64,000 nt of DNA, taken from NCBI GenBank assembly GCA_944329445.1, contig CALVIH010000002.1:8242-72241 (forward strand), written 5' to 3'. Shown in pieces: positions 13,348-39,440 of the stretch. Both the position numbers and the translations under genes were made by a program. Below the pieces are notes generated by a model, which was not told where the DNA came from, searched no databases, and saw nothing but the letters and a program-made list of their open reading frames with translations. The DNA is from an uncultured Bacilli bacterium (lineage in GTDB: Bacteria > Bacillota_I > Bacilli_A > RF39 > UBA660). How positions within the stretch are numbered: the first letter of the stretch is position 1; each line of letters starts with the position of its first letter.

Positions 13348-13354
13348 GTTCCTT

Positions 13355-13666: not shown

Positions 13667-13779
13667 TTAATACATCACCCATAAATATTATATTAATCAT
13701 TAAAATTTAGAGTTATAATAGATATCTTTTATTTTTACTTAAACAATATGTTATAATATTATTATATTGGAGGATAAAA

Positions 13780-14313: not shown

Positions 14314-14318
14314 AAGAA

Positions 14319-15707: not shown

Positions 15708-15793
15708 ACTTCCACCTCTATGTTGCAGAATAATTATACCATAAATCAAACTTATATAAAAGAAAAAATTAAAAGACTTAAAAATTAAGTCTT

Positions 15794-23791: not shown

Positions 23792-24988
23792 TTATTTTAT
23801 AACTATTTTTACAAATTTTTTCTTTCCTTTTTGAATTACAAGTTCGTTATTAACAAAATTTTTAAAAGTAATAATGGTATTAACATCATTTTCTTTTGTT
23901 CCATTTAAACTAATTCCATTTTGTCCAATCAATCTTCTTCCTTCTGACTTTGATGGAACAATTTTAGATAAGAGTAATAAATCCGGTAATGAAATACTAT
24001 TATCTATAATAGAACTTTCTACTTCTATTTCTTCAATATTATCAGGTATACCACCTTTAGCAACTGTTTTATATCTTTTTTCTGCTTGCTCTATAAGTTT
24101 TTCCTCATGATACATCTTAATTATTTCTCTGGCATACACTCTATGAGCTTCCACCACATCTTTTTCTATAATTTTTTTCGCTTTATCTAAATTTATATCT
24201 GTAGTAAGTTTAAAATAATCCATCAATACATTATCAGGAATTCTCATTGCTTTTTCATACATAATCTCAGGGCTTTCATCAACACCAATATAATTTCCTA
24301 ATGATTTACTCATCTTTTCTTTTCCGTCTAAACCCACTAATAATGGAAAACACATAACATCTTGAGGCTCTTGTCCATAATCCCTTTGCAATTCTCTTCC
24401 CACTAGCAAATTAAACGTTTGATCTGTTCCACCTATTTCTATATCCGCATGTAATGCGACAGAATCATATCCTTGCATTAATGGATATAAAAATTCATGA
24501 ATACCTATTGGAATGTTATTTTTGAATCTATTATTAAAATCGTCTCTTTCTAAGATTCTAGCAACTGTATATTTGCCAGTCAAATTAATTACATCTTTAA
24601 ATGACATTTTTGAAAGCCATTCAGAATTATAAACTATTTTAATTTTATTTGGATCTAGAATTTTAGCAACTTGCTTAAAATACGTTTCTCCATTTTTTCT
24701 GGTTTCTTCAAAACTTAGTGATGGTCTCGTTTTTGATTTGCCAGAGGGATCACCAATCATTGCAGTGAAATCTCCTATAACAAAAACAATTTCGTGACCT
24801 AATTCTTGCAATATTTTTAACGCTCTAAGTGGTACAGTATGACCTAAATGCAAATCTGGTCTAGATGGATCAGCACCAAACTTTACAACCAACTTTCTAC
24901 CACTATTTAATTTTTCAATCAAAGTATCTTTATTATGAACTTCTACTGTTCTTCTTAATATTAAATCTATTTGTTCTTTTTTATTCAT
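23792..24988 (-). CDS. tyrS: Tyrosyl-tRNA synthetase (type-2, TyrZ-like length), copy 1
   Basis: Class-I HIGH motif (PDLHLGH), KMSKS, GDPSGKSKTR tyrosine-specific block, C-terminal S4-like domain. T-box leader upstream. Confidence 0.85.
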   Translation of the reverse strand: MNKKEQIDLILRRTVEVHNKDTLIEKLNSGRKLVVKFGADPSRPDLHLGHTVPLRALKILQELGHEIVFVIGDFTAMIGDPSGKSKTRPSLSFEETRKNGETYFKQVAKILDPNKIKIVYNSEWLSKMSFKDVINLTGKYTVARILERDDFNNRFKNNIPIGIHEFLYPLMQGYDSVALHADIEIGGTDQTFNLLVGRELQRDYGQEPQDVMCFPLLVGLDGKEKMSKSLGNYIGVDESPEIMYEKAMRIPDNVLMDYFKLTTDINLDKAKKIIEKDVVEAHRVYAREIIKMYHEEKLIEQAEKRYKTVAKGGIPDNIEEIEVESSIIDNSISLPDLLLLSKIVPSKSEGRRLIGQNGISLNGTKENDVNTIITFKNFVNNELVIQKGKKKFVKIVIK

Positions 24989-24999
24989 AAATATTCCTC

Positions 25000-25235
25000 C
25001 TTCAAAAAAATACCGTGATAATTCTTATTCCATAAGGACGAATTATCGCGGTACCACCTTAATTTATGGTTAATAACCATACACTCAAAGTTATAAAGTA
25101 ACTAACTAATAAACTCATAATGTGTAATTCAAATGTATTATATGTTTAATTCCACCAAACTTAAACTCTCTAAAATATAACTAATACACTTTACTTTATC
25201 ATTAATCAGCATCTATTTAATATAAGACAATTATA
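25000..25235 (-). promoter_or_regulatory. T-box riboswitch leader (terminator/antiterminator) controlling tyrS copy 1
   Basis: Minus strand reads AAUUAAGGUGGUACCGCG at 25064..25047, against the T-box consensus AAUUAGGGUGGNACCGCG. This overlaps the 5' arm of a terminator helix (CGCGATAATTC...GAATTATCACGG) followed by UAUUUUUUU just before the RBS. An AGAGAG stem-I motif lies upstream. Confidence 0.75.
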
Positions 25236-25273: not shown

Positions 25274-26524
25274 TTATTTTTTTATTAATTTTTTATTTAC
25301 TTCTTGGTTTTGAGCTAATCTAAACATATTTCCTTTACCAATTTGAATAATTGTTCCGTCAATTGGTTTAAATACCAAATTTTCAAACCTTTCCCCATTT
25401 AGCTTAACAGCACCTTGTTGAATTAATCTTCTAACTTCACTTTTTGATTTATACTTTCCTGTAGAAAAAATACAATCAATTAATGAATATAAATCATTTC
25501 CATCTGCTAAGTTACTATCATAATTAATAATTGGTAATTCAATATTATTCACATTCTTTTTTTGATATATTGCTTGAAAACTAGCCTCAGCTTCTTTCAA
25601 CTCTTCTTCTGAATGATATAAAGAAACTATACTTCTTGCTAAATGCATTTTAATATCTCTTGGATTTGTTTCTCCATTTTGTAATAGTTTTTGTATTGAC
25701 TTTATTTTATCAGGATGCAAATCAGTTGTTAAATTATAATAATTAATTATCAGTTCATCTGGAACTCGCATAACTTTTTCATACATAGTTTTTGCATCTT
25801 CATCAACGCCAATATAATTACCAAGTGATTTACTCATTTTTTCTTTTCCATCAAGTCCAACTAATAATGGAACAAACAAAGCGACTTGTTGTGGCTTATT
25901 AAAATATTTTTGAATATTTCTTCCTAACAAAATATTAAATGTTTGATCTGTTCCTCCCATTTCTATATCAGAATTGACAACGACAGAATCGTAAGCTTGC
26001 ATTAAAGGATAAATAAATTCATGTAACGAAATAGGTTTATGAGAATTAAATCTATTTTTGAAGTCATCTCTTTCAAGCATTCTTGCTACAGTAATATTAC
26101 TACATAAGTTTAAAACTTCCGAAAAAGATATTTTATTATACCATTCACTATTAAAATGAATTTCTGTTTTTGATTTATCTATAATTTTAAATATTTGTTC
26201 AAAATAAGTTCTGGCATTTGCTTCAACTTGTTCTTTAGTAAGTTGATTACGAGTTTTTGATTTGCCTGTTGGATCACCAATTGCACCTGTAAAATCACCA
26301 ATTATTATAACTGCTTTATGACCTAAATCTTGCAATTGTTTTATTTTTCTTAATGAAACTGCATGACCAAGATGAATATCTGGTGAAGATGGGTCCATTC
26401 CGAATTTAATTCTTAATGTTCTACCTTCATTATAGACTTCTTCAACCTTATCTCTAATAGCCTGTTCATCTACATCTGTAATTCCCTTTAATAAATATTT
26501 AATTGTTTCTTCTTTGTTAAACAC
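25274..26524 (-). CDS. Tyrosyl-tRNA synthetase paralog, copy 2 (GTG start, strong RBS AAGGGGG)
   Basis: PDIHLGH, KMSKS and GDPTGKSKTR motifs; collinear with copy 1 over the full length (about half identical by eye); no T-box upstream. Confidence 0.8.
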   Translation of the reverse strand: MFNKEETIKYLLKGITDVDEQAIRDKVEEVYNEGRTLRIKFGMDPSSPDIHLGHAVSLRKIKQLQDLGHKAVIIIGDFTGAIGDPTGKSKTRNQLTKEQVEANARTYFEQIFKIIDKSKTEIHFNSEWYNKISFSEVLNLCSNITVARMLERDDFKNRFNSHKPISLHEFIYPLMQAYDSVVVNSDIEMGGTDQTFNILLGRNIQKYFNKPQQVALFVPLLVGLDGKEKMSKSLGNYIGVDEDAKTMYEKVMRVPDELIINYYNLTTDLHPDKIKSIQKLLQNGETNPRDIKMHLARSIVSLYHSEEELKEAEASFQAIYQKKNVNNIELPIINYDSNLADGNDLYSLIDCIFSTGKYKSKSEVRRLIQQGAVKLNGERFENLVFKPIDGTIIQIGKGNMFRLAQNQEVNKKLIKK

Positions 26525-26553: not shown

Positions 26554-26582
26554 ATTGTAACACTTAATCTTATTTTTGTCAA
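26554..26582 (-). promoter_or_regulatory. Near-consensus sigma-A promoter for tyrS copy 2 (TTGACA-17-TACAAT)
   Basis: On the minus strand, TTGACAaaaataagattaagtgtTACAAT lies about 30 nt upstream of the GTG start. The leader is too short for a T-box. Confidence 0.55.
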
Positions 26583-26586
26583 ATTT

Positions 26587-28113
26587 AACATTTGATAGTT
26601 GTGTAAAATAGTTTGGGGAAAGAGTATGAAAAAAGGAAGACCTCTGTTAAAATGTAGTTGTACAAAACATTAGAAAGGAGTCTTCCATATGAGCATTGTA
26701 CCACAAAATTATAATAATTTGTTAAAAAATATCATTTTAAATACTTTTTCTTCTAATTTAGAAAGTATATTACATAACATCTTTGATTCTTCAAATAACG
26801 TCTTTAATTATGTTAACCTACTTTCCAATTTAGATAATTCTCTTTGTAATATTGCAAAGCAATCCCTTATCACTTGTTTTGAATCCATTGATAAATCTTT
26901 TAAATATTCTTTAGGAAGAAAACGTAAATATGAGATTAAATCTTATCATCCTAGAACTATTCTTACTGTTTTTGGTGAAATTACTTTTTATAGAACTTTC
27001 TATAAATCTAAACTAACTGGTAAAAACTTCTGTTATGTTGATAGATTATTAGGCCTTCATAAATATGACTATTTTGATCCTTATTTAAAATCTATTGTTA
27101 TTGAGTATTCTTCTTTTATTTCTTATCCTAAGGTGGCTAAATATCTTAATGATTTAATTGGTAATAGAGTATCCATTAATGATAAACAAAAATATTTTTC
27201 AAGACAAACCATCAGAAACATTATTTTAAATTCCAATCTTTCTATCGTTAATTATGATCCTAAGCCTGTTACACCAGAAACATTATACATCATCGCTGAT
27301 GAAAAATGGATTCCTACTCAAAATAATGACAATAATAAAATAATGGAAAAATCCGTTGTTATCTTTGAAGGTATTAAAAATCATAAACTTTTAAATAAAA
27401 GAATCTTCGCTTCTTATGATAATTCTTTTATAAATGATTCTTTAGATTATCTTTTTTATACTTATGACATTGATAAAATTAAAAACATTTTCGTTATGGG
27501 TGATGGTGCCAAATGGATCTATAAGTTAAAACATGAATATAAAATTGCATCTCATATAAATGTTACTTTTTGTTTAGATAAATTCCATTTTAAACAAGCC
27601 ATTCATCATATATGTTTAAACAAAGACTTAGAAGATATTCTTTCCTTTTATGTTTTAAATGATATGAAAAATGATTTCATAGATTGTTGTTCTTCTTTAA
27701 TTGATTCTTTCCCACACAGAACCGAAACTATTAACTTAAAAATGAATTACATTTTAAATAATTGGAAAAATATCAACAACTTATATTCTCATAATTTAAG
27801 TTGTCCTATGGAATCTCAAGTTTCTCATAACATCGCTGATTTATTTACCTCTAGACCTAAAGCTTATTCTGTTAATATGATTAATAAATTAATTGAAATC
27901 AGACTTCACTATAAAAATAATGATAATTTAAAAGAGTTATACTTAAATAACTTTAATTCAAGTACAACTCTTACTCTCGATAATCATTCTCTTAACTTCA
28001 ATATTTTTGATAATTTTCAATCGTATAACTTTTTAAATAACTTAATTTTTAATCCTACATTTTAACTTTTTCTATTATTTTCCCCAAAACTCTTTACATT
28101 AACATTTGATAAT
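26587..28113 (+). mobile_element. IS-like element (about 1.5 kb) bounded by imperfect terminal inverted repeats
   Basis: Left end AACATTTGATAGTTGTGTAAAATAGTTTGGGGAAAGAG (26587-26624) and right end TTTTCCCCAAAACTCTTTACATTAACATTTGATAATG (28077-28113) share an inverted TTTCCCCAAA.../...TTTGGGGAAA core and an ACATTTGATA block. A single transposase ORF lies inside. Confidence 0.4.
26689..28065 (+). CDS. Putative DDE transposase (ISLre2/UPF0236-like)
   Basis: 458 aa. YIIADEKWIPTQ and MGDGAKWIYK blocks resemble DDE-transposase catalytic motifs of the ISLre2/UPF0236 type. An 11-bp inverted repeat GGAAGACCTCT/AGGAGTCTTCC spans its RBS. Confidence 0.45.
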   Translation: MSIVPQNYNNLLKNIILNTFSSNLESILHNIFDSSNNVFNYVNLLSNLDNSLCNIAKQSLITCFESIDKSFKYSLGRKRKYEIKSYHPRTILTVFGEITFYRTFYKSKLTGKNFCYVDRLLGLHKYDYFDPYLKSIVIEYSSFISYPKVAKYLNDLIGNRVSINDKQKYFSRQTIRNIILNSNLSIVNYDPKPVTPETLYIIADEKWIPTQNNDNNKIMEKSVVIFEGIKNHKLLNKRIFASYDNSFINDSLDYLFYTYDIDKIKNIFVMGDGAKWIYKLKHEYKIASHINVTFCLDKFHFKQAIHHICLNKDLEDILSFYVLNDMKNDFIDCCSSLIDSFPHRTETINLKMNYILNNWKNINNLYSHNLSCPMESQVSHNIADLFTSRPKAYSVNMINKLIEIRLHYKNNDNLKELYLNNFNSSTTLTLDNHSLNFNIFDNFQSYNFLNNLIFNPTF

Positions 28114-29336
28114 GCATCAAATACATATCCAGAATTACCAATATTTATTAAATATTTACTAATTTTTTCAATATTTAACTTTGTTTCTTTAAAATCTGGA
28201 TAAACAATTTTAAAGATAACTTCTAGTTTGCTTTTTAATTTTTCATAAAAACATTCTTCATCATTATTAAAACAATAATAATTTAATTCATCATTAAAAC
28301 TACTATTTAAATTTACAGAATCAATTGAATAAAGCAATACTGGTAATAAAGCAGAAACTAATTTTAAGTTTTCTCTATATGCATGAATAATAGTATTATT
28401 AAATAATATTAAAATTTTTTTGTATAATTCTTTATTTGTTTTTCTAATTGCATAAAATGTCATATCCATTATTGCATCCATATTATAACCAAATAAATCA
28501 GAAATAATCGATGCCATATCAATAGGTAATAAGCAATAATCATCATATGTAATAATTTCCTTTTTCTCTGCAAACAAAACTATTTCCATAATTTTTTTTC
28601 GTAATTCCAAATCACTTTCTGAATAGCCTAATATTTCTTTAAAGTTGGATTCATAAGTATTTAATTGTGGTTCCATTCCATTATGTGTTTGCAAATCAAT
28701 TACTATATCTCTTATTAATTTCAAGTCATATAAATAACTCCAATTAATAAACAAATTTGTTCTATAAAGTAAATTAAAATATTGTATTCTTTCAAAAAAA
28801 CTAGCATTTTCAAAATCAAATAAGTAAATTTTTTGTTTTTCTTTAGAAACAACCATATTTCTAGGACAAAATCCTGGGTATTCAATTCCTAATTCACACA
28901 ATAATTTCAACATTTTTTCAAAATCATTTATTGTAAAACATAATTCATCCTGTGAGTATAAATGCTCTTGTAAAGTATTTCCCATATAATTAGTTGCAAT
29001 ATAATTTTTACCATCAACATTATATAATTTAGGTTCTATAACTTCAAGTTGAAAATTATTAATTTTTTTTCCTGTTATTAATGTAGAAGCCAACAAAGTA
29101 TTTGACATTTCTATTTTTGATTTTTTAGGATTCATATACTTTATAAGATATTCAACATTTCTATATCTAAAGATCCTAAACCTGTTATTTACATCTAATA
29201 ATTCAGAATTGTGAAAAAAATTATATATTGGATCTTTGTATGCAATTCTTATTGCATCTTCAAAATTATCAGTTTCAACAATATTGATATCATTGCTTTT
29301 ATGTAACGCACTATATAACTTACCCATTTTCACCAT
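28062..29336 (-). CDS. Kinase-fold (choline/Kdo-kinase-like) protein with a C-terminal helical extension; last gene of the 7-gene operon
   Basis: GFCPRNMVV ... KIYLFDFENASF resembles the catalytic loop and the DFE (Brenner) motif of choline/APH-type kinases, but the catalytic Asp is not evident. The 3' end overlaps the IS right inverted repeat. Confidence 0.4.
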   Translation of the reverse strand: MVKMGKLYSALHKSNDINIVETDNFEDAIRIAYKDPIYNFFHNSELLDVNNRFRIFRYRNVEYLIKYMNPKKSKIEMSNTLLASTLITGKKINNFQLEVIEPKLYNVDGKNYIATNYMGNTLQEHLYSQDELCFTINDFEKMLKLLCELGIEYPGFCPRNMVVSKEKQKIYLFDFENASFFERIQYFNLLYRTNLFINWSYLYDLKLIRDIVIDLQTHNGMEPQLNTYESNFKEILGYSESDLELRKKIMEIVLFAEKKEIITYDDYCLLPIDMASIISDLFGYNMDAIMDMTFYAIRKTNKELYKKILILFNNTIIHAYRENLKLVSALLPVLLYSIDSVNLNSSFNDELNYYCFNNDEECFYEKLKSKLEVIFKIVYPDFKETKLNIEKISKYLINIGNSGYVFDALSNVNVKSFGENNRKS

Positions 29337-30297
29337 CTTCTAAAAATTCATTCATAAATGCCGCGCCTATCATTCCTGCACTATTACCAAGTTTTGCTTG
29401 AATAACATTAACCTTCGGAGTACATTTATAACCATAATCTCTCTTAGCAATATATTCATTGATTTTTTTAAACAAAAAATCTCCTGTTTCTGAAATTCCA
29501 CCGCCAATTATTATTGCTTCTGGTCTAAAGCAATTACATATGTTTAATATACCTTCACTTAAATATTTTACATATTTATTGATTACCTTATTAGCCGATT
29601 TATCATTTAATTTAGCACAAGTGAAAGCTAAAGTCCCATCAACATTTTCGATATTGCCATAAACATGACTCCACATCAAAGAATTTTTGTTATATAACAT
29701 TTCTTCTTTTGTATACCTAATTAATGCTTTTGCAGATGCATATGCTTCAAAACATCCATGCCTACCACAAGTACATAATTCGCCATTCATCATTAATAGA
29801 GTGTGTCCAACTTCTCCGCCTTTATCTCCATTTCCTTCAAATAATTTCCCGTTTATAACAATTCCAGCACCTATTCCAGTTCCTATTGTCATAACAATCG
29901 CACTTTTATATTGCATACCAGCCCCAAACATCATTTCACCTATACAAGCTGATCTTGAATCATTACAGATTTTCATAGGAATAGTTATTCCTTTATCTTT
30001 TAATAATCCAATTATAGGAACATTATTCCACGATAAATTCCCAGAAAATTCAGCTAACCCTTTTTTTCTATTAACAATTCCTGGTATGCCTAATCCAATA
30101 AAAGATAGAAATGTATCACTTATACTCTTATTTTTTTTTATTAAATAATTTATTAAATTATATAAATTATCAACAACACTTATTTTTTCATCATCATTGA
30201 AAGTTTGGACTTTGGTAGAAAATAAAACATTTCCTTTATCATCTATAATTCCACCTTTTATAAAAGTCCCGCCAACATCTATACCTATTCTATTCAT
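29320..30297 (-). CDS. ROK-family sugar kinase (glucokinase/N-acetylhexosamine kinase-like)
   Basis: RIGIDVGGTFIKGG N-terminus and the zinc motif CTCGRHGCFEAYAS. Confidence 0.75.
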   Translation of the reverse strand: MNRIGIDVGGTFIKGGIIDDKGNVLFSTKVQTFNDDEKISVVDNLYNLINYLIKKNKSISDTFLSFIGLGIPGIVNRKKGLAEFSGNLSWNNVPIIGLLKDKGITIPMKICNDSRSACIGEMMFGAGMQYKSAIVMTIGTGIGAGIVINGKLFEGNGDKGGEVGHTLLMMNGELCTCGRHGCFEAYASAKALIRYTKEEMLYNKNSLMWSHVYGNIENVDGTLAFTCAKLNDKSANKVINKYVKYLSEGILNICNCFRPEAIIIGGGISETGDFLFKKINEYIAKRDYGYKCTPKVNVIQAKLGNSAGMIGAAFMNEFLEDGENG

Positions 30298-31321
30298 ATC
30301 TTAACACCTTATCCTTCACATTTAGATCGATAGCAAAATCCAATGAACGTATTGGAATTTTCTTCATTGTTTCTTCTCTTTTTAGCCATATATTTTCAAA
30401 ATATTCCTCAAATGTTTCAAACTCGTAGTATTCCTTTCCAATAGTCGGTAATACACCTAAATCAATTATAATCCATTGCTGTTTTTCTTCGCACCAAATA
30501 AAATTACCAGGATGAATATCTAGAATAATTTTATTAAATAATAATGAATACGTAGAGTAAAATAATCTTAAAGATTTTATTTGTTTTTCCGTAAAAGGAA
30601 TATGATTAAAAAGATAATACTCTCCATTCTCTCCGCTTACAAAATTGTGCATCAAAAATTTATTCACAGCATCAAAAGTATAATTTTCGGGTAAAAATTT
30701 ATTTAAATCTGTTTTTGATAAATAGTTATACGAATCCATTTCCTGTTGCATCAGAAATAATTTAGATGCAACAGTTTTTGGATATTTTATAATTACATTT
30801 TTTTCTAAATAAATATTTGATATAGCACCAGTATCATTGAGCAGAAACAAATTTTCTAATTTGTTTTTTTTTAATGTTACTACCCTATATAAATACATAA
30901 GTGAAAACTCAATTATGTTTTTTATATCTTTTTCAGTTATAGGCATTGTATAAATAATATTATTGAATGCATATAAAACAAGAGGACACAAACCATTGTC
31001 TGCCAAAATATTATTCAGTAATAAACTGTTTTCAAAAAGGTTATCTTCTGGTTTCATAACATTATTAAACAAAACTACTATATCATTTACATTATTAATC
31101 TTAATGTTTCTTTTACTTTTTAAAAAAGTCCTGTTATCGTATAATAATTTTTCTAAAAAAGCATAATAATAATCGTATTTTTTAGAATCGTTCTCTTTTA
31201 AATACATTAAATGATTTTTATAAACCACAAAATTAATTTTATTTTTTTCTTCATAAGTCATTTTAGAATAAAACAACATATAATTAAATAAATCTTGATT
31301 ATTTAATTCACTAAGTTTCAT
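30290..31321 (-). CDS. APH/choline-kinase-family phosphotransferase
   Basis: ILDIHPGNFIW (D-x-H-P-G-N catalytic loop) and IIIDLGV (metal-binding Asp) in the C-terminal lobe. Confidence 0.5.
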   Translation of the reverse strand: MKLSELNNQDLFNYMLFYSKMTYEEKNKINFVVYKNHLMYLKENDSKKYDYYYAFLEKLLYDNRTFLKSKRNIKINNVNDIVVLFNNVMKPEDNLFENSLLLNNILADNGLCPLVLYAFNNIIYTMPITEKDIKNIIEFSLMYLYRVVTLKKNKLENLFLLNDTGAISNIYLEKNVIIKYPKTVASKLFLMQQEMDSYNYLSKTDLNKFLPENYTFDAVNKFLMHNFVSGENGEYYLFNHIPFTEKQIKSLRLFYSTYSLLFNKIILDIHPGNFIWCEEKQQWIIIDLGVLPTIGKEYYEFETFEEYFENIWLKREETMKKIPIRSLDFAIDLNVKDKVLRYE

Positions 31322-31322
31322 A

Positions 31323-33251
31323 TTACCTTTTTAGACCATTTGGATATTTATCTAAATATTCTTTAGTTTTTTTCTTTATATATTTTACATCTGTTTCATT
31401 TTTTAAAGACTTATCAAAGAAATAATTAGAATTATCAAAATAATATGTTACTTCTTCCAACGAAAGTCCAAAAGGATTTTCATTATTTATAAATTGTTCA
31501 ACGTCTAAATCCTTTGGAGGCTTATGATACTTTAATTCTCTCATTTTGAATCCAGAATTTATTAATTTTTCATCATGATATAATTCTATTTTATACTTAG
31601 CATCTACATAAATCGCATCTATGCCTTTTTGTAGTGCGAATTGAATAGCTTCATTAATATTATTAATAATTGGTTCTCCAGCATCGTTCAAAGAAGTATT
31701 ACATAAAACAGGAATTTTTGTCCTAGCATAGAATGATTTCAATAACTCATATAAATTTTTATTACTTTCTGAACTAACACTTTGAATTCTCGCAGTTCCG
31801 TCATAATGAGTTACAGCAATTAAGTCATCTCTGTATTTTTGTTTAATACTCAAGTTCAATAACATATATGGTGAAAATCTATAATCTTCAAATATTTCTG
31901 AACCATGTTCATCCATTATTAATGGCGCTACTGGTCTCCACCACTGTCTTTTTTTAATAACATTAAGTTTATCTTTTATTGCTTGATATCTTGGATCGCC
32001 TAAAATTGATCTATCTCCCAAAGCACGAGGACCTATTTCTGCTCTTCCATCAATCCATATCATAATGTTATTTTCTAATTCAGCAGCAATTTTATCAATT
32101 GTAATCTCTTTAATTTCTTTTATATATTTTTTGTTTTCTGCGTTTATGGAATTAATACCACCATGATATTGTCCATAATATACTGTATTCAAGTTAACTT
32201 TTGCTTTTCCAGTAGAAAGTAATGGATAAAATGCCGCTAGGCCTACTCCTAAAGCAATACCTGTATCACTTGCACATGGAGGAATTTGATAGTTCTTAAA
32301 TTTGTATTTTTTTAATATTGAACTGTTAGTTGGACAATTTAAAGCAAAACCTCCTGCTAAAGCAATTGTTGTTTCCTTAGGATCCAATTTAAATGTTGAC
32401 AATATTTTATCAATATGTTTAAATACCATTTTTTCAGAAAGAACAGAAATTATTTTCATAACCATACTAATATAATTTTCTTGTTCTGTAAAATTCTCAT
32501 TAAATTTTGAACATTTTATACCTATATCCTCTTTTTTTATAGATAAAACTTGATTGCATATATCTTCAACAATAAATTGTGCATTTCCTCTAGCTTCTTC
32601 ATTATAGAAAGTTATACCATCATATTTTGAATAATCAAAATTATAAAATTCTGTGTCCATAGCTGTAGCCAATGCCATTAATGACCCTTCTCTTAAGCCA
32701 AATTTTTTATATGAATAACTCCAAAATCTTGCAGGTGATTCAACTTCAAAAAATTCAATTTTACCATTATTTATAACAGCACCTGAATAATATTGCAAAT
32801 CATATGCATTATTTTCAAAGCAACTATCTGGTCCTGCATCCAGAGCCAAAGCAATAATTTTATCAGAAAAAGGGGTACTATTTGAATAAAGTATACTTGT
32901 TAATAAATGTGCAATATTATGAAAGCATACTCTTGAGTCAATATAATTCATATAATTATTATCTATTTCTATACCTTTAGTACCCCAGATCCCTTTAATA
33001 TCATTTAGCGTTAACTGCTCTTCTTCTAATAATTTATTTATTAATTCTAATAAATAATCTTTGCTATACGCCGCAATTTGATGTTGCTTTATACCAGTAA
33101 TTCTTTCTAACTCCCAATATTTTACTAATTTAATTTCATCGTCAAAATAACTCCATAATGCGATAGTATGATCATGCCTAACTTTTACCTTTAAAATATT
33201 TTGCAATTCTCCAAAAGATAAAAATGTTGATATATAATAACCTTCTTCCAT
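31323..33251 (-). CDS. NodU/CmcH/TobZ-family O-carbamoyltransferase
   Basis: ERITGIKQH, ALAGGFALNCPTNS, and C-terminal GPRALGDRSILGDPR...KRQWWRPVAPL (Carbam_trans_C-type block). Confidence 0.7.
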   Translation of the reverse strand: MEEGYYISTFLSFGELQNILKVKVRHDHTIALWSYFDDEIKLVKYWELERITGIKQHQIAAYSKDYLLELINKLLEEEQLTLNDIKGIWGTKGIEIDNNYMNYIDSRVCFHNIAHLLTSILYSNSTPFSDKIIALALDAGPDSCFENNAYDLQYYSGAVINNGKIEFFEVESPARFWSYSYKKFGLREGSLMALATAMDTEFYNFDYSKYDGITFYNEEARGNAQFIVEDICNQVLSIKKEDIGIKCSKFNENFTEQENYISMVMKIISVLSEKMVFKHIDKILSTFKLDPKETTIALAGGFALNCPTNSSILKKYKFKNYQIPPCASDTGIALGVGLAAFYPLLSTGKAKVNLNTVYYGQYHGGINSINAENKKYIKEIKEITIDKIAAELENNIMIWIDGRAEIGPRALGDRSILGDPRYQAIKDKLNVIKKRQWWRPVAPLIMDEHGSEIFEDYRFSPYMLLNLSIKQKYRDDLIAVTHYDGTARIQSVSSESNKNLYELLKSFYARTKIPVLCNTSLNDAGEPIINNINEAIQFALQKGIDAIYVDAKYKIELYHDEKLINSGFKMRELKYHKPPKDLDVEQFINNENPFGLSLEEVTYYFDNSNYFFDKSLKNETDVKYIKKKTKEYLDKYPNGLKR

Positions 33252-33262
33252 ATTTTCCTCCT

Positions 33263-35524
33263 TTATCTAAATACAAATGGTCTTGGTTTATGCGGAACTT
33301 CTTTTGCTTCAAAAGTATCTTTTATTTTATCAAAATCCTTAATGTGTTTCATTAATTCATCAACAAATTTATCAACATATTGTCTATTAAAATGTGCAGA
33401 CATTGGATAAGCTTTTAAAACACCTATCTTTTTTCCATTGGATAAAACGTGATATCCTGATGAATAATCAATAGTGAACGAACACTTACCTTGTTTTTCC
33501 TTTTCAAGTAAATATGTATAAAATTTGTAATTATACTCGCCAAATTTTTTGGCATATTCCAAATCTCCATTACCTAAATCAAAGAAAGATGGAACATTGT
33601 TTTTTTCTTTTGCAACAAATAATGTTACAAATCCATTACTATCTAAGTCATTTATTACTTCAAATTTTCCAGTTTGTTCAAGTTTTTCTTTCAAATATTG
33701 TGAAGAATCCAAGAGATTTGCCATTATTTTTTGATATCCTTGAATACCTAACATTTTCAAATTAACATAAGCCGAAATAGGTCCACTTAATGGTCTCGAC
33801 AATTCAAGAGTATATTGGAATGGTGAATAATTGCCAAATTCTAATTCATCATATGGAATATTAGGAGCATCACCTTGTTCATATAATTCAGTTTTATCTT
33901 TAGTAATATATAGACTTGCTAGATAAGAACAAAAACCAGTTTTATGGAAGTCTACTCCAAATGAATCAGCGTATTTTATATCTTTAATTTGCTCTGTTAA
34001 AAACTTAATCTTATTTAAAGCTTTTGTATGAATATTTAATGGATTTTCATTAAAATCATAATCTTTAAAGAATAACCATACCCAACCAATTACTGAATCA
34101 ACATGAACTCTTGGAATATAATCAAGGTTATATTTTTTTACCATTTTATTTCTTAATTCAACAATTTTTTTTATAGGATCAATAGTCATTTGAATAGTAG
34201 TACATCCATTTACAATGATTGTAGCCACCTTTTTTCCTAAAGATAGAGCTTCATCAAATTCCTTCTCCAATTCATTTAAATCCACAACACCCATAGAATC
34301 TATTTTTATTCTTTTACAATTATTTTCACCTATACCTAACCATCCACAAACTTCAACATGGCAGATATGACCTTGAGTATTTGAAAAAACAATTATTTCA
34401 TCTTTTATTCCTGTTTTTCTAAAATCCTTATTTACTCTTTGGATACCATGTTTAACTGCATGCATATTTGTTGATTTGCCTCCAAATGTAAATATACCGC
34501 CGGATTTTTTATAGTCAATATCAGCTAATTCACTTATCATTTTTATAGTTGCAAGTTCAGTAGTCATCAATAATCCGCACGATAAATCTTGTGCTGCATT
34601 TGGATTATATAATGAGAAATAACTACTTGCTGCTAAAGATTCAATTGTAGGAACAGGATTAACGTTTGTTAAAGTACCTGGATTATTCCATAAAACCATA
34701 CCTTCTGTATATTTAGTTAATTGTTCATATACTTCATCAACACTTTGTGATTCAAATTTTAAATTTTCGTATTCCAAAAATTCTGCATATTTTTTATTTG
34801 TATTTTTAGGAATTCTTGAATAAGAATGGATTATGTTTTTGTCAACTTTCTTATGTAATAACTCAATATCATTCAAAAATTCAGCTATATCCATTGTTTC
34901 TGGATTTAAAAAATGTTTATTCATATTTAATTTTTCCTTTTCATAATTAATTTTTTCTAATGCATCTTCAATATTGCTTATTTCTCTTTTGTTTTTTATA
35001 TACATTGTTTTAAAGCCTAAAAAACTTGCCGGCTTTATATCAACCATATAATTATCACCTATTACATAAATTTGTCGTGGTGACAATTTATATTTTTTTA
35101 CGATTTTTTTGTATATTTCAAATTTATTTTTATGTTTATCAGTACAATAAATTTCGTCAAATAATTTTTCAACACCTAAATTTTTAAGTATTTCTTTAAC
35201 ATGATACTCACATGAATTAGAGCAAACGATCTTTTTACCATCTAACTTACACAATTCTTTTTTTAAATTATCATTTTTATCAAAATATTCATTGTAATTT
35301 ATATCTTTATATACTTCTTTATAAAAATCCTTTTTATCAATCTTTAACTTTTCTAAAGCAATTAATAAATCAGGAATTTCTTTTTCTAAATTTTTATATT
35401 CGTTTTCTGTTAAATGTCCTTTTTGCTTTATATAGTTTTTAATTCTTTTGTCAATTATTTTCGAAATGCGATTACTTTCATCATATAATGTTCCATCTAA
35501 ATCAAAGATAAATAATTGTTTCAT
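33263..35524 (-). CDS. Fusion protein: N-terminal HAD-superfamily phosphatase plus PLP-dependent group-II decarboxylase
   Basis: HAD motifs FIFDLDGTLYDE, CSNS, YVIGDNYMVD (residues 1-200); decarboxylase motifs SGGIFTFGGKSTNMHAV, HVDSVIGW and the PLP-lysine block SFGVDFHKTGF. Confidence 0.65.
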   Translation of the reverse strand: MKQLFIFDLDGTLYDESNRISKIIDKRIKNYIKQKGHLTENEYKNLEKEIPDLLIALEKLKIDKKDFYKEVYKDINYNEYFDKNDNLKKELCKLDGKKIVCSNSCEYHVKEILKNLGVEKLFDEIYCTDKHKNKFEIYKKIVKKYKLSPRQIYVIGDNYMVDIKPASFLGFKTMYIKNKREISNIEDALEKINYEKEKLNMNKHFLNPETMDIAEFLNDIELLHKKVDKNIIHSYSRIPKNTNKKYAEFLEYENLKFESQSVDEVYEQLTKYTEGMVLWNNPGTLTNVNPVPTIESLAASSYFSLYNPNAAQDLSCGLLMTTELATIKMISELADIDYKKSGGIFTFGGKSTNMHAVKHGIQRVNKDFRKTGIKDEIIVFSNTQGHICHVEVCGWLGIGENNCKRIKIDSMGVVDLNELEKEFDEALSLGKKVATIIVNGCTTIQMTIDPIKKIVELRNKMVKKYNLDYIPRVHVDSVIGWVWLFFKDYDFNENPLNIHTKALNKIKFLTEQIKDIKYADSFGVDFHKTGFCSYLASLYITKDKTELYEQGDAPNIPYDELEFGNYSPFQYTLELSRPLSGPISAYVNLKMLGIQGYQKIMANLLDSSQYLKEKLEQTGKFEVINDLDSNGFVTLFVAKEKNNVPSFFDLGNGDLEYAKKFGEYNYKFYTYLLEKEKQGKCSFTIDYSSGYHVLSNGKKIGVLKAYPMSAHFNRQYVDKFVDELMKHIKDFDKIKDTFEAKEVPHKPRPFVFR

Positions 35525-37458
35525 CTATTTTTATTCAACCTCTTTAAAACCATTTTTTTTATCCCTTCATCATCAAATTGATAATGTTTAATCAAATCAT
35601 CAACTTTACCAGACGTACCTTCATAATACCCATGTCCATATATAAATTTAGGTCTTGGTAATGTTTCACTACTCAATATTGTGCTTGATACATGTTGTGG
35701 AAGTATTTCTGGACTACCATTATATAATGTAATAATAGGAGCATCATTAACTAATAATTCATTTGCTTTTTGTTCAAACTTATTTGGGCATACCATGTTT
35801 ATTACATTTGTTGGAATTCCATAATTTATTTCCAAATCTTTTGCAACTTTTACAGCATTTTCTCCCATAAAACCAGTAGAAATTAGCACAAGCCTAGGTT
35901 CTTTATCAGTTTGATGAATATAATAGGCAATAATATTATCTTTATCACTATCGTTTCGTTCAATATTTAAAGTCCCATGATGTATTCTAACATAATTCAA
36001 ACCAGTATTTTTCTTTAAGATTGATGAATATATATTGTATAAATCCACATTATCAGCCGGTTCATAAAAATTCACATCTGGTATGGTCATTAAAGCACCT
36101 GGCTGTGATACAGTTTGATGTGTTTTTCCGTTATGTCCTTGAAATATTCCTGAATTTTCTCCAATAACTAATATATTACTTTCGCCCGTTGCTGCTGCAT
36201 TAAGTTGATCCATAAACCTGTACGAAAAAGCATCTCCACTACATAATATAATTCTTGCATCACGATTTTCCACTGAAATGCCATGAGCCATTGCTATAGC
36301 ATGTTGTTCTCTAATTCCTGTATTAATAAAATGCGTAAAATTTTTAAAGTCTGCTAAAGTCTCTGTATCCTTTCTTATCAAATCAGGTGTAATAAAATAT
36401 ATATTTGACTTATCATGACTTTGTATTACATTTTTTCTTAATTCTTCAAAAAACTGATCTTGTGCATCTTCAACATTTATACCAGTATGATCCGTATGTA
36501 TGTCAAATACATCAGAATCAATATAGTTATTCTTAATAATTACATTAGACGGAGTAGAAATAAGTTTCTTTGCAAGTGAAGAAATGTTTTCACAACTTAA
36601 TCCTTGCTGTTCTAACGCTGTTTTCATTTCTTTATAAGTCTCTATTATAAGTTCTTTTTCTTTTTTACTAGCACCTGATAATGTATGATATCCATTAAAA
36701 TGTTCAATGGCATTTTTAATTCCATAAGCTTTTGTTGTATTTGCAATAATCATAATTGGTTTATTTTGTTTTTGTGTCTTACTATATGCATCTAAAACTT
36801 CTTGTATATTATTACCATCTTCTATAGATATAACATCCCAGCCATATCCTCTCCATATTTCTTCAATATTTGCTCCAGAATCATGATAACTTGTTGCTCC
36901 TGATAATTGTTTACCATTTTTATCCAATATACATATTAGATTATTTAAATTTAAATTAGCTGCATGACGAGCTGCTTCAGAAATATTTCCTTCTTGTTCT
37001 TCACCATCCCCTAGGAAAACAACTATTTTTGAATCAATACTTTTATCCTTATTTGCTATTGCAGAACCTACTCCATAAGAAAGAATCATTCCTAATGAAC
37101 CACTTGGTGTAATATCTACTCCAGGAACAAAAAACATATCCTCGTGTCCTTGCAATCTAGACCCTAATTGTCTGTACCCTTTTAATTCATCTGGTTTAAT
37201 GTATCCTAATAGTGAAAATATTGTATATCTCAAAGGGCCTTCATGACCTCTTATCAAAACTCTATCTCTATTTGGATTTTTCGAGTCTTCTGGATCAAAA
37301 TTAAAAACTCCTCCAAAATACAAAGCTGTTAACAACTCTACTGAAGACATATTTCCTCCAAGATGCCCATTATTTGCATTTAGAATTGTTCCTAATGCTG
37401 TTGTTCTAACATAATTAGCGATCTTCTTTAATTCATCTAATCTTTCTTTTTCCGTCAT
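35521..37458 (-). CDS. Transketolase-family thiamine-diphosphate enzyme
   Basis: GHLGGNMSSVELLTALYF, NPNRDRVLIRGHEGP, GYRQLGSRLQGHED, and the TPP motif GDGEEQEGNISEAARHAANLNLNNLICILDKN. Confidence 0.7.
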   Translation of the reverse strand: MTEKERLDELKKIANYVRTTALGTILNANNGHLGGNMSSVELLTALYFGGVFNFDPEDSKNPNRDRVLIRGHEGPLRYTIFSLLGYIKPDELKGYRQLGSRLQGHEDMFFVPGVDITPSGSLGMILSYGVGSAIANKDKSIDSKIVVFLGDGEEQEGNISEAARHAANLNLNNLICILDKNGKQLSGATSYHDSGANIEEIWRGYGWDVISIEDGNNIQEVLDAYSKTQKQNKPIMIIANTTKAYGIKNAIEHFNGYHTLSGASKKEKELIIETYKEMKTALEQQGLSCENISSLAKKLISTPSNVIIKNNYIDSDVFDIHTDHTGINVEDAQDQFFEELRKNVIQSHDKSNIYFITPDLIRKDTETLADFKNFTHFINTGIREQHAIAMAHGISVENRDARIILCSGDAFSYRFMDQLNAAATGESNILVIGENSGIFQGHNGKTHQTVSQPGALMTIPDVNFYEPADNVDLYNIYSSILKKNTGLNYVRIHHGTLNIERNDSDKDNIIAYYIHQTDKEPRLVLISTGFMGENAVKVAKDLEINYGIPTNVINMVCPNKFEQKANELLVNDAPIITLYNGSPEILPQHVSSTILSSETLPRPKFIYGHGYYEGTSGKVDDLIKHYQFDDEGIKKMVLKRLNKNR

Positions 37459-37475
37459 GTATTTTTCTCTCCAAT

Positions 37476-38921
37476 CTACTTCCTATTGAACTCTCTTATT
37501 CTTCTTTTCGCATACGTCGTAACTGCTTTGTCTTCCCAATCTTCTCTTGGTCCAAATGATAAATCGTCTGTTATTATTCTTACTCTATCTTTGTTTTTAA
37601 GTGGCTTATCAACATCCACATACTCATCATTTACAATAGCAGCCACCATGGTATTACCAATATCAGTATGTATTTTATAGGCAAAATCTATTGGTGTTGC
37701 TCCTACTGGTAACTCAACTATTTCTCCTTTAGTTGTGTATACATATATTTTGTTTGCAAATAATTCATTTTTCACTTGATATACAAATTCTTTATTGTCT
37801 CCAAAAACTTTATCCATTTCAACAAGTGATGTAAAAAACTGATATTTATCTTTTAGTTCTTGTTGCATAACTTCTCTTGCTTTCCCCTTTTCAATATCCC
37901 AATAAGTTGATAGTCCAAACGATGCTACTTTATCCATATCAAATGTTCTTATTTGTGTTTGTACTAATCTATCATCTGGTGCAAATACGGTTGTATGAAG
38001 TGATCTGTACATGTTTGTTTTTGGATTGCATATAAAGTCTTTAAACTTGCCATTTACCGGATTATACTTACTATGAACAAGTCTTAATGTTTGATAACAA
38101 TTATTAACCGTATCAACCATTACTTTAAGAGCTAACAAATCATGTATGTCAGATATTTTTCCACCTTCATTTAACTTTTTATATATTCCATATATATTTT
38201 TTGTTCTTACTTTTATTTCATTTGGAATTGATTCATCATTAAGCATACTTTGTATCGTTTGTAACATTTCTTTTAAACATGATTCACTTTCTTCTTCAAT
38301 TCTTATTTTCTTTTCACCAATCATCTTATACATATCAGGCTTTAAATACCTAAGTGATAAATCCTCTAATTCTTGTTTTATTCTATATGCTCCAATGTAA
38401 TATGCCATAGGAACAAATATCTCAAGTGTTTCTAGAGCATTTTCTTTTTGTTTAAACTCACTTTTAAATTGTAAAGTCCTCATGTTATGAAGCCTATCAG
38501 CCAGTTTTATTAAAATAATTCTTACATCATTTGTTATACTTGTTATTATTTTTCTTGTATTAGCCAAATTCTGATCTTGTTTTGATGAAAAGTTCATCTT
38601 ACTTATCTTTGTTACTCCGTCAACTAAGTTTGCAACATCACTATTAAAGTTTTCTGCAATTTCTTCTTTAGAAATATTAGTATCTTCTAAAGTGTCATGT
38701 AAAAGACCCGCACATACTGTGTCACCATCCGCTCTTAATTCAGCTAATATGTAAGCTACATTTAACGGATGAATTATATAAGGTTCGCCGCTTTGTCTTT
38801 GCTGGCCTTGATGAAGAGTATTTGCCATATTATAGGCCCTTCTTACTTCTTCAACCTCATCAGGATTATATGATTTAATAATACCTATTAAATCATTAAT
38901 ATCTAGACTTTCTTTACTCAT
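37476..38921 (-). CDS. RelA/SpoT homolog truncated after the TGS domain (HD hydrolase + synthetase + TGS; no ZFD/ACT C-terminal region)
   Basis: HD motif HPLNVAYIL...LLHDTLEDT; synthetase motifs RTKNIYGIYKKL, DLLALKVMV, YRSLHTTV, QTQIRT; TGS motif IYVYTTKGEIVELPVGATPIDFAYKIHTDIGN. First gene of the operon. Confidence 0.7.
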   Translation of the reverse strand: MSKESLDINDLIGIIKSYNPDEVEEVRRAYNMANTLHQGQQRQSGEPYIIHPLNVAYILAELRADGDTVCAGLLHDTLEDTNISKEEIAENFNSDVANLVDGVTKISKMNFSSKQDQNLANTRKIITSITNDVRIILIKLADRLHNMRTLQFKSEFKQKENALETLEIFVPMAYYIGAYRIKQELEDLSLRYLKPDMYKMIGEKKIRIEEESESCLKEMLQTIQSMLNDESIPNEIKVRTKNIYGIYKKLNEGGKISDIHDLLALKVMVDTVNNCYQTLRLVHSKYNPVNGKFKDFICNPKTNMYRSLHTTVFAPDDRLVQTQIRTFDMDKVASFGLSTYWDIEKGKAREVMQQELKDKYQFFTSLVEMDKVFGDNKEFVYQVKNELFANKIYVYTTKGEIVELPVGATPIDFAYKIHTDIGNTMVAAIVNDEYVDVDKPLKNKDRVRIITDDLSFGPREDWEDKAVTTYAKRRIREFNRK

Positions 38922-38937: not shown

Positions 38938-38989
38938 TAACAAAAAGGCAGTAACTCACAAGGTCATACGACCTTAAAAGTTACTGCCT
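38938..38989 (-). terminator. Strong hairpin plus U-tract in the leader of the Rel-headed operon (terminator or attenuator)
   Basis: GGCAGTAACT-caca-AGGTC-atac-GACCT-taaa-AGTTACTGCC followed by UUUUUG on the minus strand, about 20 nt upstream of the rel RBS. Confidence 0.5.
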
Positions 38990-38994
38990 TAAAG

Positions 38995-39093: not shown

Positions 39094-39189
39094 GCTACTC
39101 ACCTCTTAAAATATTTTAATTATAAACTACTCTTTATTTTAGAACTTGTCAAGCTTTTTTTGACAAATTTTTCCATTTTTTTAGATTTG

Positions 39190-39218
39190 TCAAAAAAAAC
39201 AAGATATTAAATCTTGTT
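39190..39218 (-). terminator. Rho-independent terminator after the 64-aa membrane protein gene
   Basis: AACAAGAT-ttaat-ATCTTGTT perfect 8-bp stem followed by UUUUUUUU on the minus strand. Confidence 0.55.
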
Positions 39219-39411
39219 AATTTCTATTTTTAGTAAGTATAAATCCAATCAATCCAACTATTACGATTATCATTCCAACAATTAAAATACCACCATTACT
39301 TTCTTTACCAGCTGTTGCTTCTTTAGCAATTGATGCCGTATATAAATAATCATAATACTTAACCGTTAATTTATCAAATAAATTTAAAGTTTTTGTAACA
39401 CCTTGTTCCAA
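39217..39411 (-). CDS. Small protein with a C-terminal TM helix
   Basis: 64-aa ORF; GGILIVGMIIVIVGLIGFIL hydrophobic tail. Confidence 0.3.
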   Translation of the reverse strand: MEQGVTKTLNLFDKLTVKYYDYLYTASIAKEATAGKESNGGILIVGMIIVIVGLIGFILTKNRN

Positions 39412-39440
39412 TTTAATTCCTCCTTAAAAAAGAAAAGTTC

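Follow-up and report, generated by a model that had tools for sequence, protein, structure and literature searches.

Comparative analysis of an accessory gene cassette linking a group II decarboxylase with a second tyrosyl-tRNA synthetase

Here we analyzed a 64,000-nucleotide stretch of DNA (hereafter the window) from an uncultured Bacilli bacterium (GTDB lineage Bacteria; Bacillota_I; Bacilli_A; RF39; UBA660; GenBank assembly GCA_944329445.1, contig CALVIH010000002.1, positions 8,242 to 72,241), focusing on a seven-gene operon for which an earlier note, made from the sequence alone, had suggested an undescribed small-molecule pathway. The operon codes for a short Rel/SpoT homologue (Rel481), a transketolase-like enzyme, a fusion of a HAD phosphatase with a pyridoxal 5'-phosphate (PLP) decarboxylase, a carbamoyltransferase (CT), a small protein-kinase-like protein (PKL343), a ROK-family kinase and a second kinase-like protein (unk424). 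Comparison with related loci indicated that these genes belong to an accessory cassette with a native eighth gene, which codes for a tyrosyl-tRNA synthetase (TyrRS2).

Gene content and organization of the operon

All seven minus-strand open reading frames (ORFs) that had been proposed between 38921 and 28062 were recovered at the same coordinates (481, 645, 753, 642, 343, 325 and 424 aa for genes 1-7, respectively; Table 1). The junctions were also as described: three consist of spacers (17, 11 and 1 nt) and three of overlaps (4, 8 and 17 nt). Public gene calls place the start of gene 7 at 29327, which would shorten the last overlap to 8 nt. The same gene order recurred, at 51-95% protein identity, in independent contigs from metagenomes and metagenome-assembled genomes (MAGs) (L004-L006, L009, L010 and L090-L094), which argues for a conserved arrangement rather than a chance run of ORFs and agrees with the earlier view of one tightly coupled operon. 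Proteins identical to those of the window were found only on gut metagenome contigs. Domain assignment by Pfam and NCBIfam profiles placed the N, Pyr and C domains of transketolase in gene 2, HAD and Pyridoxal_deC in gene 3, Carbam_trans_N/C in gene 4 and ROK in gene 6. Genes 5 and 7 had no Pfam hit; their motifs, profile searches and predicted folds identified the products as protein-kinase-like.

The 3' end of the operon is disrupted by an insertion sequence (IS), which landed in the final codons of gene 7 and thereby parted TyrRS2 from the other genes. The element has imperfect 20-nt terminal inverted repeats (26602-26621 and 28079-28098) and is flanked on both sides by a 13-nt direct repeat, TATCAAATGTTAA (26585-26597 and 28099-28111; 0.02 expected by chance), and its transposase scored below the NCBIfam cut-off (142 vs 200) but above the Pfam UPF0236 cut-off. 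Homology to the uninterrupted locus L010 stopped at 28131 and restarted at 26593, with 23 nt in between in L010 and 1537 nt in the window. Since the IS lies inside gene 7, the last codons of this gene and its stop at 28062 are IS sequence, and the 3' end is chimeric. The identical insertion was present in three independent metagenome contigs (L001-L003), suggesting that it is fixed in this lineage. In uninterrupted relatives, TyrRS2 directly follows gene 7, at a distance of 1 nt (L004 and L005) or approximately 60 nt (L009, L010 and L090). Thus, the proposed link between the operon and a non-T-box TyrRS proved to be the strongest part of the earlier claim.

TyrRS2 also appears to have its own promoter. 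The best promoter-like site of the region, with 11 of 12 matches and an upstream TG, is a near-consensus, extended -10 site. It lies within the native 3' end of gene 7 and was kept at the nucleotide level in L010 (10898-10930, TGTTATAAT) and L004 (16843-16875). The odd but conserved tail of the gene 7 product, FDK..CYNNTNF, is the translation of this embedded promoter, which the IS spared. TyrRS2 is of the Thermus/TyrZ type and looks catalytically competent, judging from its HLGH and KMSKS motifs and the conserved tyrosine-pocket motif YPLMQAYD. Both TyrRS2 and the neighboring TyrRS1 reached equivalog scores, and a T-box was found on TyrRS1 only. In a neighbor-joining tree, the TyrRS2 clade took in sequences from Bacilli, Tenericutes, Clostridia and Alphaproteobacteria and was separate from the T-box TyrRS1 clade. 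The two copies differ at 16 clade-specific positions, all of them conservative, and three of these lie in pocket motifs (I/L, G/A and A/G).

Upstream of the first gene, we found a short leader ORF whose stop codon is four nucleotides from a terminator hairpin. The predicted fold of the leader was very stable (-58.2 kcal/mol, z = -7.1), and none of 200 shuffled sequences was as stable. Five other loci (L004, L028, L035, L056 and L058) showed TTGACA-type promoter-like sites at the same place and short ORFs of approximately 32-50 codons in the same position, whose sequence is not conserved and whose stop falls within the 5' arm of the terminator or immediately precedes it. The leaders span L004:5860-6030, L058:6100-6275, L056:8250-8385, L035:6170-6340 and L028:1540-1705; the truncated L010 locus also shows the terminator. 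This arrangement suggests that leader ORF and terminator form a candidate ribosome-position attenuator heading Rel481-led operons. A permissive Rfam scan of the leader gave chance-level matches only (PyrR, E 1.6), so that it is neither a T-box nor a known riboswitch. Attenuation by tyrosine codons is not claimed: some leaders contain Tyr pairs (YDYY, YDFY and YY), but the window peptide has a single Tyr, and the leader of the LeuRS type is not Leu-rich. A perfect 9-nt inverted repeat, TTGACAAAT...ATTTGTCAA, is present just upstream of the promoter-like site (39159-39193) and may be an operator.

Rel481 matched Bacillus subtilis Rel with an E value of 1.6e-124 and has the hydrolase (HD), synthetase-fold and TGS domains in the usual order of long Rel/SpoT homologues (RSH). 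Unlike these proteins, which have about 700 or more residues, it ends after the TGS/helical region at approximately 480 aa, as the description "truncated Rel" had implied: the TIGR00691 match covered model positions 1-450 of 687, and 17 nt separate its stop from gene 2. It also differs from long RSH in heading a metabolic operon that a candidate leader-peptide attenuator precedes. The hydrolase motifs HDxxED and DRLHNMRT were intact in Rel481 and eight orthologues. On the other hand, alignment to B. subtilis Rel revealed that the catalytic Glu of the synthetase is replaced by Gln (LEVQIRT to VQTQIRT) and that the helix AEYGxAAHWxYK reads ASFGLSTYW (AEYGVAAHWAYK to ASFGLSTYWDIE). Both changes were observed in every cluster-linked Rel481 orthologue. 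An exhaustive HMMER search, in which the 150 best representatives were inspected, recovered approximately 45 short homologues (457-511 aa), and almost all of them had Gln or another residue in place of Glu and lacked AAHWxYK, whereas nearly all proteins of approximately 700 aa or more with a readable motif kept both. This short subfamily (approximately 460-510 aa; HD, synthetase fold and TGS, without the C-terminal domains) is widespread, with Glu mostly changed to Gln. We found no description of short Gln-type Rel proteins in the searchable literature, where no search was aimed at RSH classification and the group may be catalogued somewhere. In RelSeq, the E323Q change abolishes (p)ppGpp synthesis, and the TGS domain of RelA contacts the 3' CCA of uncharged tRNA. 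By analogy, Rel481 has probably lost alarmone synthesis and would be a hydrolase whose synthetase fold is a nucleotide-binding pseudo-enzyme, followed by a TGS domain. The loss of the Glu and of the AAHWxYK helix in all cluster-linked orthologues, with intact hydrolase motifs, makes the pyrophosphoryl-transfer step that the earlier note had envisaged unlikely.

Catalytic motifs were intact in the decarboxylase, PKL343, the HAD domain, the ROK kinase and the C domain of the CT. The gene 2 product is a divergent transketolase-like enzyme rather than a tktA orthologue, because its best NCBIfam transketolase score (256.5 bits) was well under the equivalog cut-off of 488. The decarboxylase carries a DFHKTGF motif, which bears the PLP lysine and was invariant in 15 diverse homologues; it is remote from every solved enzyme, the best being 2,4-diaminobutyrate (DABA) and glutamate decarboxylases (E 4e-25). 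The HAD/decarboxylase fusion described before was present in the window but not in close relatives, which have two genes. HAD is a separate gene of 198-199 aa in L004, L009 and L010, and the decarboxylase is mostly unfused (approximately 553 aa). Since the two genes are adjacent in these three loci, the fusion appears to be recent. The 753-aa ORF of the window (33263-35524) has a counterpart in P0001 (75% identity), the gene pair of L004 lies at 9403-11662, and the fused decarboxylase retains an internal Met (MNKHF).

With respect to the CT, matches in the Protein Data Bank (PDB) to 7xb6, TobZ, GdmN and NovN were confined to residues 273-550 (E 1e-28 to 1e-41), and PDB profile comparison gave no match to Kae1, TsaD or Sua5. 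In the N domain, Pfam covered residues 263-336 only; the candidate metal-site motifs RHDH, FHNIAH and SDTG (HD, HxxxH) were noted by eye. Because the first approximately 270 residues are too divergent for Pfam and PDB profiles, the acceptor of this enzyme is probably new. PKL343 has a kinase fold with an HxDxxxxN catalytic loop and a DxG/DxE metal loop, whereas the kinase-like half of unk424 lacks the catalytic Asp. PDB profile searches with both proteins gave marginal kinase matches only, three of nine PKL343 relatives had weak ABC1 Pfam matches, and fold searches with predicted structures placed both in the kinase superfamily without singling out a subfamily. The ROK kinase scored below the cut-off of the glucokinase subfamily TIGR00744 (221.7 vs 260.35) and was confined to the Bacilli version of the cassette.

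Table 1. Coordinates of the operon, its control elements and adjoining genes in the window
Feature	Position	Strand	Remarks
Operon promoter-like site	39119..39152	-	TTGACA at 39152-39147, then TAGTTT 17 nt or TATAAT 22 nt downstream; read from sequence; consensus match only
Leader ORF, 32 codons	38995..39093	-	MRNYRLLSEDKIFLASKFVGLIFLCLFCFLIK; own Shine-Dalgarno
Intrinsic-terminator hairpin (13+7 bp) and U-run	38939..38990	-	Directly upstream of Rel481 ribosome-binding site; candidate attenuator
Rel481, short Rel/SpoT homologue	37476..38921	-	HD_4, RelA_SpoT and TGS; no C-terminal ZFD/ACT
Divergent single-chain transketolase-like thiamine diphosphate (ThDP) enzyme	35521..37458	-	Three transketolase domains; GDG...N ThDP motif visible
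HAD phosphatase domain	34922..35524	-	DLDGT motif; pyrimidine-5'-nucleotidase-like; fused to decarboxylase
Group II PLP decarboxylase	33263..34921	-	Pyridoxal_deC; core cassette gene; uncharacterized subfamily
TobZ/NodU-type CT	31323..33251	-	Kae1-like N and YrdC-like C domains; Carbam_trans_C PF16861, E 6e-56
PKL343	30290..31321	-	Minimal protein-kinase-like (RIO/Bud32/APH-like) kinase with N-terminal helical domain
ROK-family sugar kinase	29320..30297	-	ROK E 3e-67; CxCGxxGCxE zinc motif
unk424	28062..29336	-	Kinase-like N half and helical C half; 3' end disrupted by IS
ISLre2/UPF0236-type IS	26598..28098	+	1501 bp; transposase ORF 26689-28065
Internal TyrRS2 promoter	26554..26582	-	TTGACA-17-TACAAT with upstream TG; inside native gene 7 3' end
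TyrRS2, non-T-box tyrosyl-tRNA synthetase	25274..26524	-	Native eighth gene; tyrS equivalog 363.7 bits vs cut-off 113.8
T-box leader of housekeeping tyrS	25031..25218	-	RF00230, 94.4 bits, E 2e-19
TyrRS1, T-box-controlled housekeeping TyrRS	23792..24988	-	Cassette neighbor, not member

The window itself is normal chromosomal DNA of a walled member of Bacillota, with genes for RecA, LigA, a class A penicillin-binding protein (PBP1), a CCA-adding enzyme and a class B RNase P. The DNA is low in GC (25-33%), and no compositional mark of recent transfer was found in the window, where GC content was uniform at 25-31%. Upstream of the operon are an AMP-binding, acyl-CoA-ligase-like gene and two genes for membrane proteins of 227 and 64 aa (40173-42230 and 39222-40124), which are absent from the L004-L006 version and therefore probably lie outside the cassette; AMP-ligase genes recurred near other decarboxylase loci (L015, L018, L021, L056 and L076). 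Genes for a protein with a Panacea (SocA-like) antitoxin domain and a Bro-N domain protein (62450-63364 and 47584-48459) hint at mobile or prophage-derived material, without linkage to the operon.

Occurrence and variation of the cassette

To describe the distribution of the cassette, we collected relatives of the decarboxylase: approximately 100 from a protein search and 410 from a genome scan, of which the best 80 loci were analyzed by tblastn and clustering of all ORFs. The hosts included Bacilli, Clostridia, Alphaproteobacteria, Nocardia, Paenibacillus, Bathyarchaeia and others, and the cassette is common in human and animal gut metagenomes, with one decarboxylase cluster indexed in 87 blocks of the assembly collection. 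When aminoacyl-tRNA synthetase (aaRS) genes within 7 kb of the decarboxylase were counted by ORF clustering, 38 of the 81 decarboxylase-anchored genome loci had such a gene, against a chance rate of 1-2% per single synthetase by our own estimate. These comprised 26 class Ic synthetases of the TyrRS cluster, one of which (the alphaproteobacterial L041) is a TrpRS, and 12 LeuRS, confirmed at the equivalog level. The decarboxylase tree was sorted by the type of linked synthetase, LeuRS or TyrRS. The sister clade beside LeuRS (L047, L053, L056, L057, L059, L062, L063, L065, L069, L071, L072 and L076) was found in Bacilli, Saccharibacteria and Bacteroidales, and its loci usually carry a 276-aa nucleotidyltransferase and often a type I phosphodiesterase.

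The loci could be arranged into four types. Type A, with parentheses for genes that may be absent, is (Rel481)-Tkt-HAD-deC-CT-PKL343-(ROK)-unk424-TyrRS2 and occurs in Bacilli; its alphaproteobacterial form lacks Rel and ROK, and a minimal form in Nocardia is HAD-deC-CT-PKL343-TyrRS. Type B is (Rel481)-unk424-two small ORFs-deC-HD protein-radical SAM-TyrRS2-TyrRS1. A third type, from Patescibacteria and Gammaproteobacteria, has an FAD amine-oxidase-like gene and a B12 radical SAM enzyme, and the fourth is a nucleotidyltransferase/phosphodiesterase cassette next to LeuRS. In three Patescibacteria MAGs from lineages with genomes of approximately 1 Mb (L025, L026 and L040), the decarboxylase is flanked by two TyrRS genes of different clades. 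One of the pair groups with the gammaproteobacterial cluster-linked copy and the other with Saccharibacteria TyrRS. As in Bacilli, an accessory copy is thus found beside a presumed housekeeping copy.

A second, independent scan was anchored on PKL343 and covered 16 metagenome loci. Most of the loci with enough flank held both the decarboxylase and TyrRS, and one (L099) held the decarboxylase only. The linkage of decarboxylase and TyrRS persisted at 27-36% PKL343 identity, where the CT was absent. It thus appears that the decarboxylase, PKL343 and TyrRS form the deepest conserved core of the cassette. Decarboxylase, RIO/APH-like kinase and TyrRS were found together from Bacilli to Alphaproteobacteria, Nocardia and Patescibacteria.

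Three observations agree with the earlier proposal that these genes are accessory rather than housekeeping. First, Types A and B fill the same Rel481...TyrRS2-TyrRS1 frame in related Bacilli, so that cassettes are swapped within it. Second, the cassette is present in Alphaproteobacteria and Nocardia. Finally, it is disrupted in L006 (ERZ28616541 scaffold_103, 7471-14642), where the genes for the transketolase, HAD, CT and PKL343 are all split or truncated but those for Rel481, the decarboxylase, ROK, unk424 and both TyrRS copies remain intact; the disruptions represent either pseudogene decay or an assembly error. As judged from these genome comparisons, the cassette appears to be accessory and to have been exchanged horizontally between phyla.

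Several side observations were made at individual loci. In Nocardia L027, where the cassette ends with the PKL343 gene, a 5-hydroxymethyldeoxyuridine (5-hmdU) DNA kinase-like gene (15238-16308) follows after approximately 540 nt, which raised the idea of phage DNA hypermodification. This idea was rejected, as the decarboxylase family was nearly absent from 2.9 million viral contigs (one match at 28% identity). In the alphaproteobacterial locus L011 (16462-19728), a C5 DNA methylase, an AIPR abortive-infection gene and a truncated AlaRS-like gene adjoin the cassette, and in L007 (R. sufflavum, 4497-4952) a YbaK-type aminoacyl-tRNA editing domain is found nearby. A defense system was also considered and rejected: PADLOC models gave nothing meaningful for the window, with Rel481 matching a candidate family at 1e-7 over the synthetase fold only.

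Possible functions of the cassette

The closest documented arrangement is the tyramine (TDC, tyrosine decarboxylase) cluster of Enterococcus and Lactobacillus (tyrS-tdcA-tyrP-nhaC), in which a tyrS paralogue accompanies the tyrosine decarboxylase (PMC3315439). The tyrS genes of TDC clusters group apart from housekeeping tyrS, suggesting co-evolution with the cluster, and histamine clusters likewise carry hisS (PMC3315439). Like these clusters, the cassette combines a PLP decarboxylase with a paralogue of the cognate aaRS in its own clade and occurs in gut-associated hosts. They differ in several respects: the window cassette has no amino-acid/amine or Na+/H+ antiporter, its linked tyrS has no T-box (which is on the other copy), its decarboxylase falls in a different, uncharacterized group II subfamily, and along with a Rel homologue it encodes five to seven additional enzymes.

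Based on this precedent, we tentatively propose that the locus is a horizontally exchanged accessory cassette that makes a tailored amine from tyrosine and carries its own translation-protecting genes, a reading to which we assign a rough probability of 0.42. The decarboxylase would turn L-tyrosine, or a close analogue, into its arylethylamine, because the linked synthetase would name the substrate as it does in the tyrS-tdcA and hisS-hdc clusters; by the same analogy, we infer that the LeuRS-linked cousins may act on leucine. PKL343 might then phosphorylate the amine, the CT might carbamoylate it via carbamoyl-AMP, and the HAD enzyme might take off a phosphate, while a sugar phosphate would come from, or be reshaped by, the ROK kinase and transketolase-like enzyme of the Bacilli version. 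unk424 may bind ATP, although it has no catalytic Asp. TyrRS2, expressed from its own promoter, would keep tRNA-Tyr charged while tyrosine is drained or while the T-box-controlled TyrRS1 is inhibited by tyramine-like intermediates or products. Rel481 would remove (p)ppGpp, so that the pathway would not trigger the stringent response, and the leader ORF ending at the terminator would gate transcription of the enzyme genes through ribosome position. Since the cassette has no antiporter and includes five to seven further enzymes, the amine is probably a pathway intermediate rather than simply exported. A similar logic is seen in psilocybin synthesis, where the decarboxylase PsiD is followed by the APH-like kinase PsiK. 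This is an analogy of logic only, with no sequence relationship beyond the fold, and it does not imply that the phenol is the group phosphorylated here.

A number of observations weigh against this proposal. Classical biogenic-amine loci are defined by an amino-acid/amine antiporter, but none was found in the operon, and no transporter was a recurrent neighbor in the 81 loci. The decarboxylase scored far under the tyrosine decarboxylase equivalogs (TIGR03811, 30.4 vs 905 bits, E 1e-7; TIGR03812 MfnA, 49.5 vs 299), and its best solved relatives, as noted above, act on DABA or glutamate. The order and targets of the tailoring steps are guesses. With regard to the protective genes, comparison of TyrRS2 with TyrRS1 revealed nothing in the 16 conservative substitutions that marks inhibitor resistance. 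The remainder of the Rel481 synthetase domain is conserved and might therefore have another activity or serve as a regulatory nucleotide site, and Rel481 could also be the ordinary Rel of the organism, placed by chance at the head of the operon.

Antibiotic clusters offer a second precedent, in which a resistant copy of the target aaRS accompanies the pathway genes: agrocin 84 (LeuRS AgnB2), mupirocin (IleRS), indolmycin (TrpRS) and borrelidin (ThrRS). On this model, the enzymes would make a TyrRS inhibitor, for example a tyrosyl-adenylate mimic or a compound that the synthetase itself turns into a tight-binding adduct, with TyrRS2 as the insensitive copy, and the LeuRS-linked relatives would make a leucine counterpart. 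As in those clusters, a second, catalytically intact and phylogenetically distinct synthetase travels inside an accessory, horizontally moving cluster, with a promoter separate from that of the enzyme genes. The conserved strong promoter of TyrRS2, independent of the attenuated enzyme genes, resembles that of many immunity genes; the same architecture occurs with LeuRS; two TyrRS genes flank the decarboxylase in the three Patescibacteria MAGs; and variant cassettes carry nucleotide-handling enzymes (nucleotidyltransferase, nucleotide pyrophosphatase, HD hydrolase and radical SAM). We nevertheless consider self-resistance doubtful. The operon contains neither a scaffold-forming or ligating enzyme nor an exporter, the minimal Nocardia version has tailoring-type enzymes only, and the pocket motifs of TyrRS2 are canonical, with conservative clade-specific changes and no resistance signature. 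Most hosts are gut bacteria with small genomes, Patescibacteria or archaea, which are not known as classical producers. No matching cluster or compound was found in the literature searched: searches for the SB-219383 gene cluster and for genome mining by TyrRS self-resistance gave no relevant result, and no genetically defined natural pathway to a TyrRS-targeting compound turned up. The enterococcal and lactobacillar tyramine cluster is the simpler precedent. The lack of scaffold-forming enzyme and exporter applies equally to the aminoglycoside- or nucleoside-type tailoring that the earlier note had suggested, for which we found no specific support.

A broader version of the inhibitor model, which seems unlikely, would make the loci members of an extensive and so far undescribed group of mobile cassettes, found in microbes of gut, rumen and termites, Patescibacteria and archaea among them. 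Each cassette would produce an amino-acid-derived inhibitor of a single aaRS (Tyr, Leu and perhaps Trp) together with an immune synthetase, with the Bacilli version adding a hydrolase-only short Rel against self-starvation into the stringent response. If true, this family would be a genetically defined natural route to a TyrRS-targeting compound.

Alternatively, the cassette may be induced to protect the cell from an exogenous tyrosine analogue or TyrRS inhibitor encountered in herbivore, human or termite guts. The kinases, CT, decarboxylase and phosphatase would inactivate the compound, TyrRS2 would be a more selective or insensitive enzyme, and Rel481 would reset the stringent response. Control by leader peptide and terminator is typical of translation-stress and resistance operons, APH-like kinases and the ANT-like nucleotidyltransferases of variant cassettes belong to classic drug-modifying families, and the cassette is spread among unrelated gut, rumen and termite taxa. 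However, seven enzymes, a transketolase and a sugar kinase among them, would be a large number for a detoxification route, the leader peptides show no consistent enrichment in codons for Tyr (or, in the LeuRS type, for Leu), and there is no candidate toxin, which makes a protective role quite improbable.

It is very improbable that the system is directed at tRNA, with the Kae1/YrdC-like enzyme and the Bud32/RIO-like kinase (compare t6A/KEOPS), the TGS domain of Rel481 and TyrRS2 modifying or repairing tRNA-Tyr. CT and PKL343 always adjoin, and genes for tRNA or aminoacyl-tRNA functions (TyrRS, LeuRS, TrpRS, AlaRS-like, YbaK-like and FemAB) recur near the decarboxylase family. On the other hand, the CT groups with the small-molecule O-carbamoyltransferases TobZ, GdmN and NovN rather than with Kae1, TsaD or Sua5, the deepest conserved triad lacks it, and it is hard to see what a PLP decarboxylase would do to tRNA. 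Finally, the view that ordinary housekeeping genes (rel, tkt, glucokinase and tyrS) are merely clustered here, which would fit the normal chromosomal region with its uniform GC content and the commonness of short Rel proteins (Rel481 might be the only long RSH of the cell), is largely refuted, since the transketolase and ROK kinase are well under their equivalog or subfamily cut-offs, the cassette is replaced in related Bacilli, present in distant phyla and decayed in L006, a T-box tyrS lies next door, and the core decarboxylase, kinase and CT have no housekeeping role.

Novelty and implications

Searches of the literature for a cluster joining TyrRS, CT and decarboxylase found nothing relevant, and neither the cassette nor the decarboxylase clade and the two kinase-like families were described in the searchable literature. 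Compared with TobZ, NodU, CmcH, GdmN and NovN, the CT of the cassette strongly conserves the YrdC-like C domain and the end of the Kae1-like domain; it differs in its divergent first approximately 270 residues and in always being paired with a small RIO/APH-like kinase. Several families are thus flagged here: a clade of group II decarboxylases of approximately 550 aa, two kinase-like families, and a short Rel of approximately 480 aa with a Glu to Gln change.

The locus extends the known pattern of a decarboxylase with its cognate synthetase, as in the tyramine and histamine clusters of lactic acid bacteria, to a much wider, cross-domain family equipped with downstream tailoring enzymes, and we offer the rule that the linked synthetase may predict the substrate amino acid. 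It also offers a concrete model in which to study how bacteria keep translation and the stringent response safe when a pathway consumes or imitates an amino acid. If the product turns out to inhibit a synthetase, or to be an amine derivative that acts on the host, these loci may be relevant to microbial competition in the gut and to host neurochemistry.

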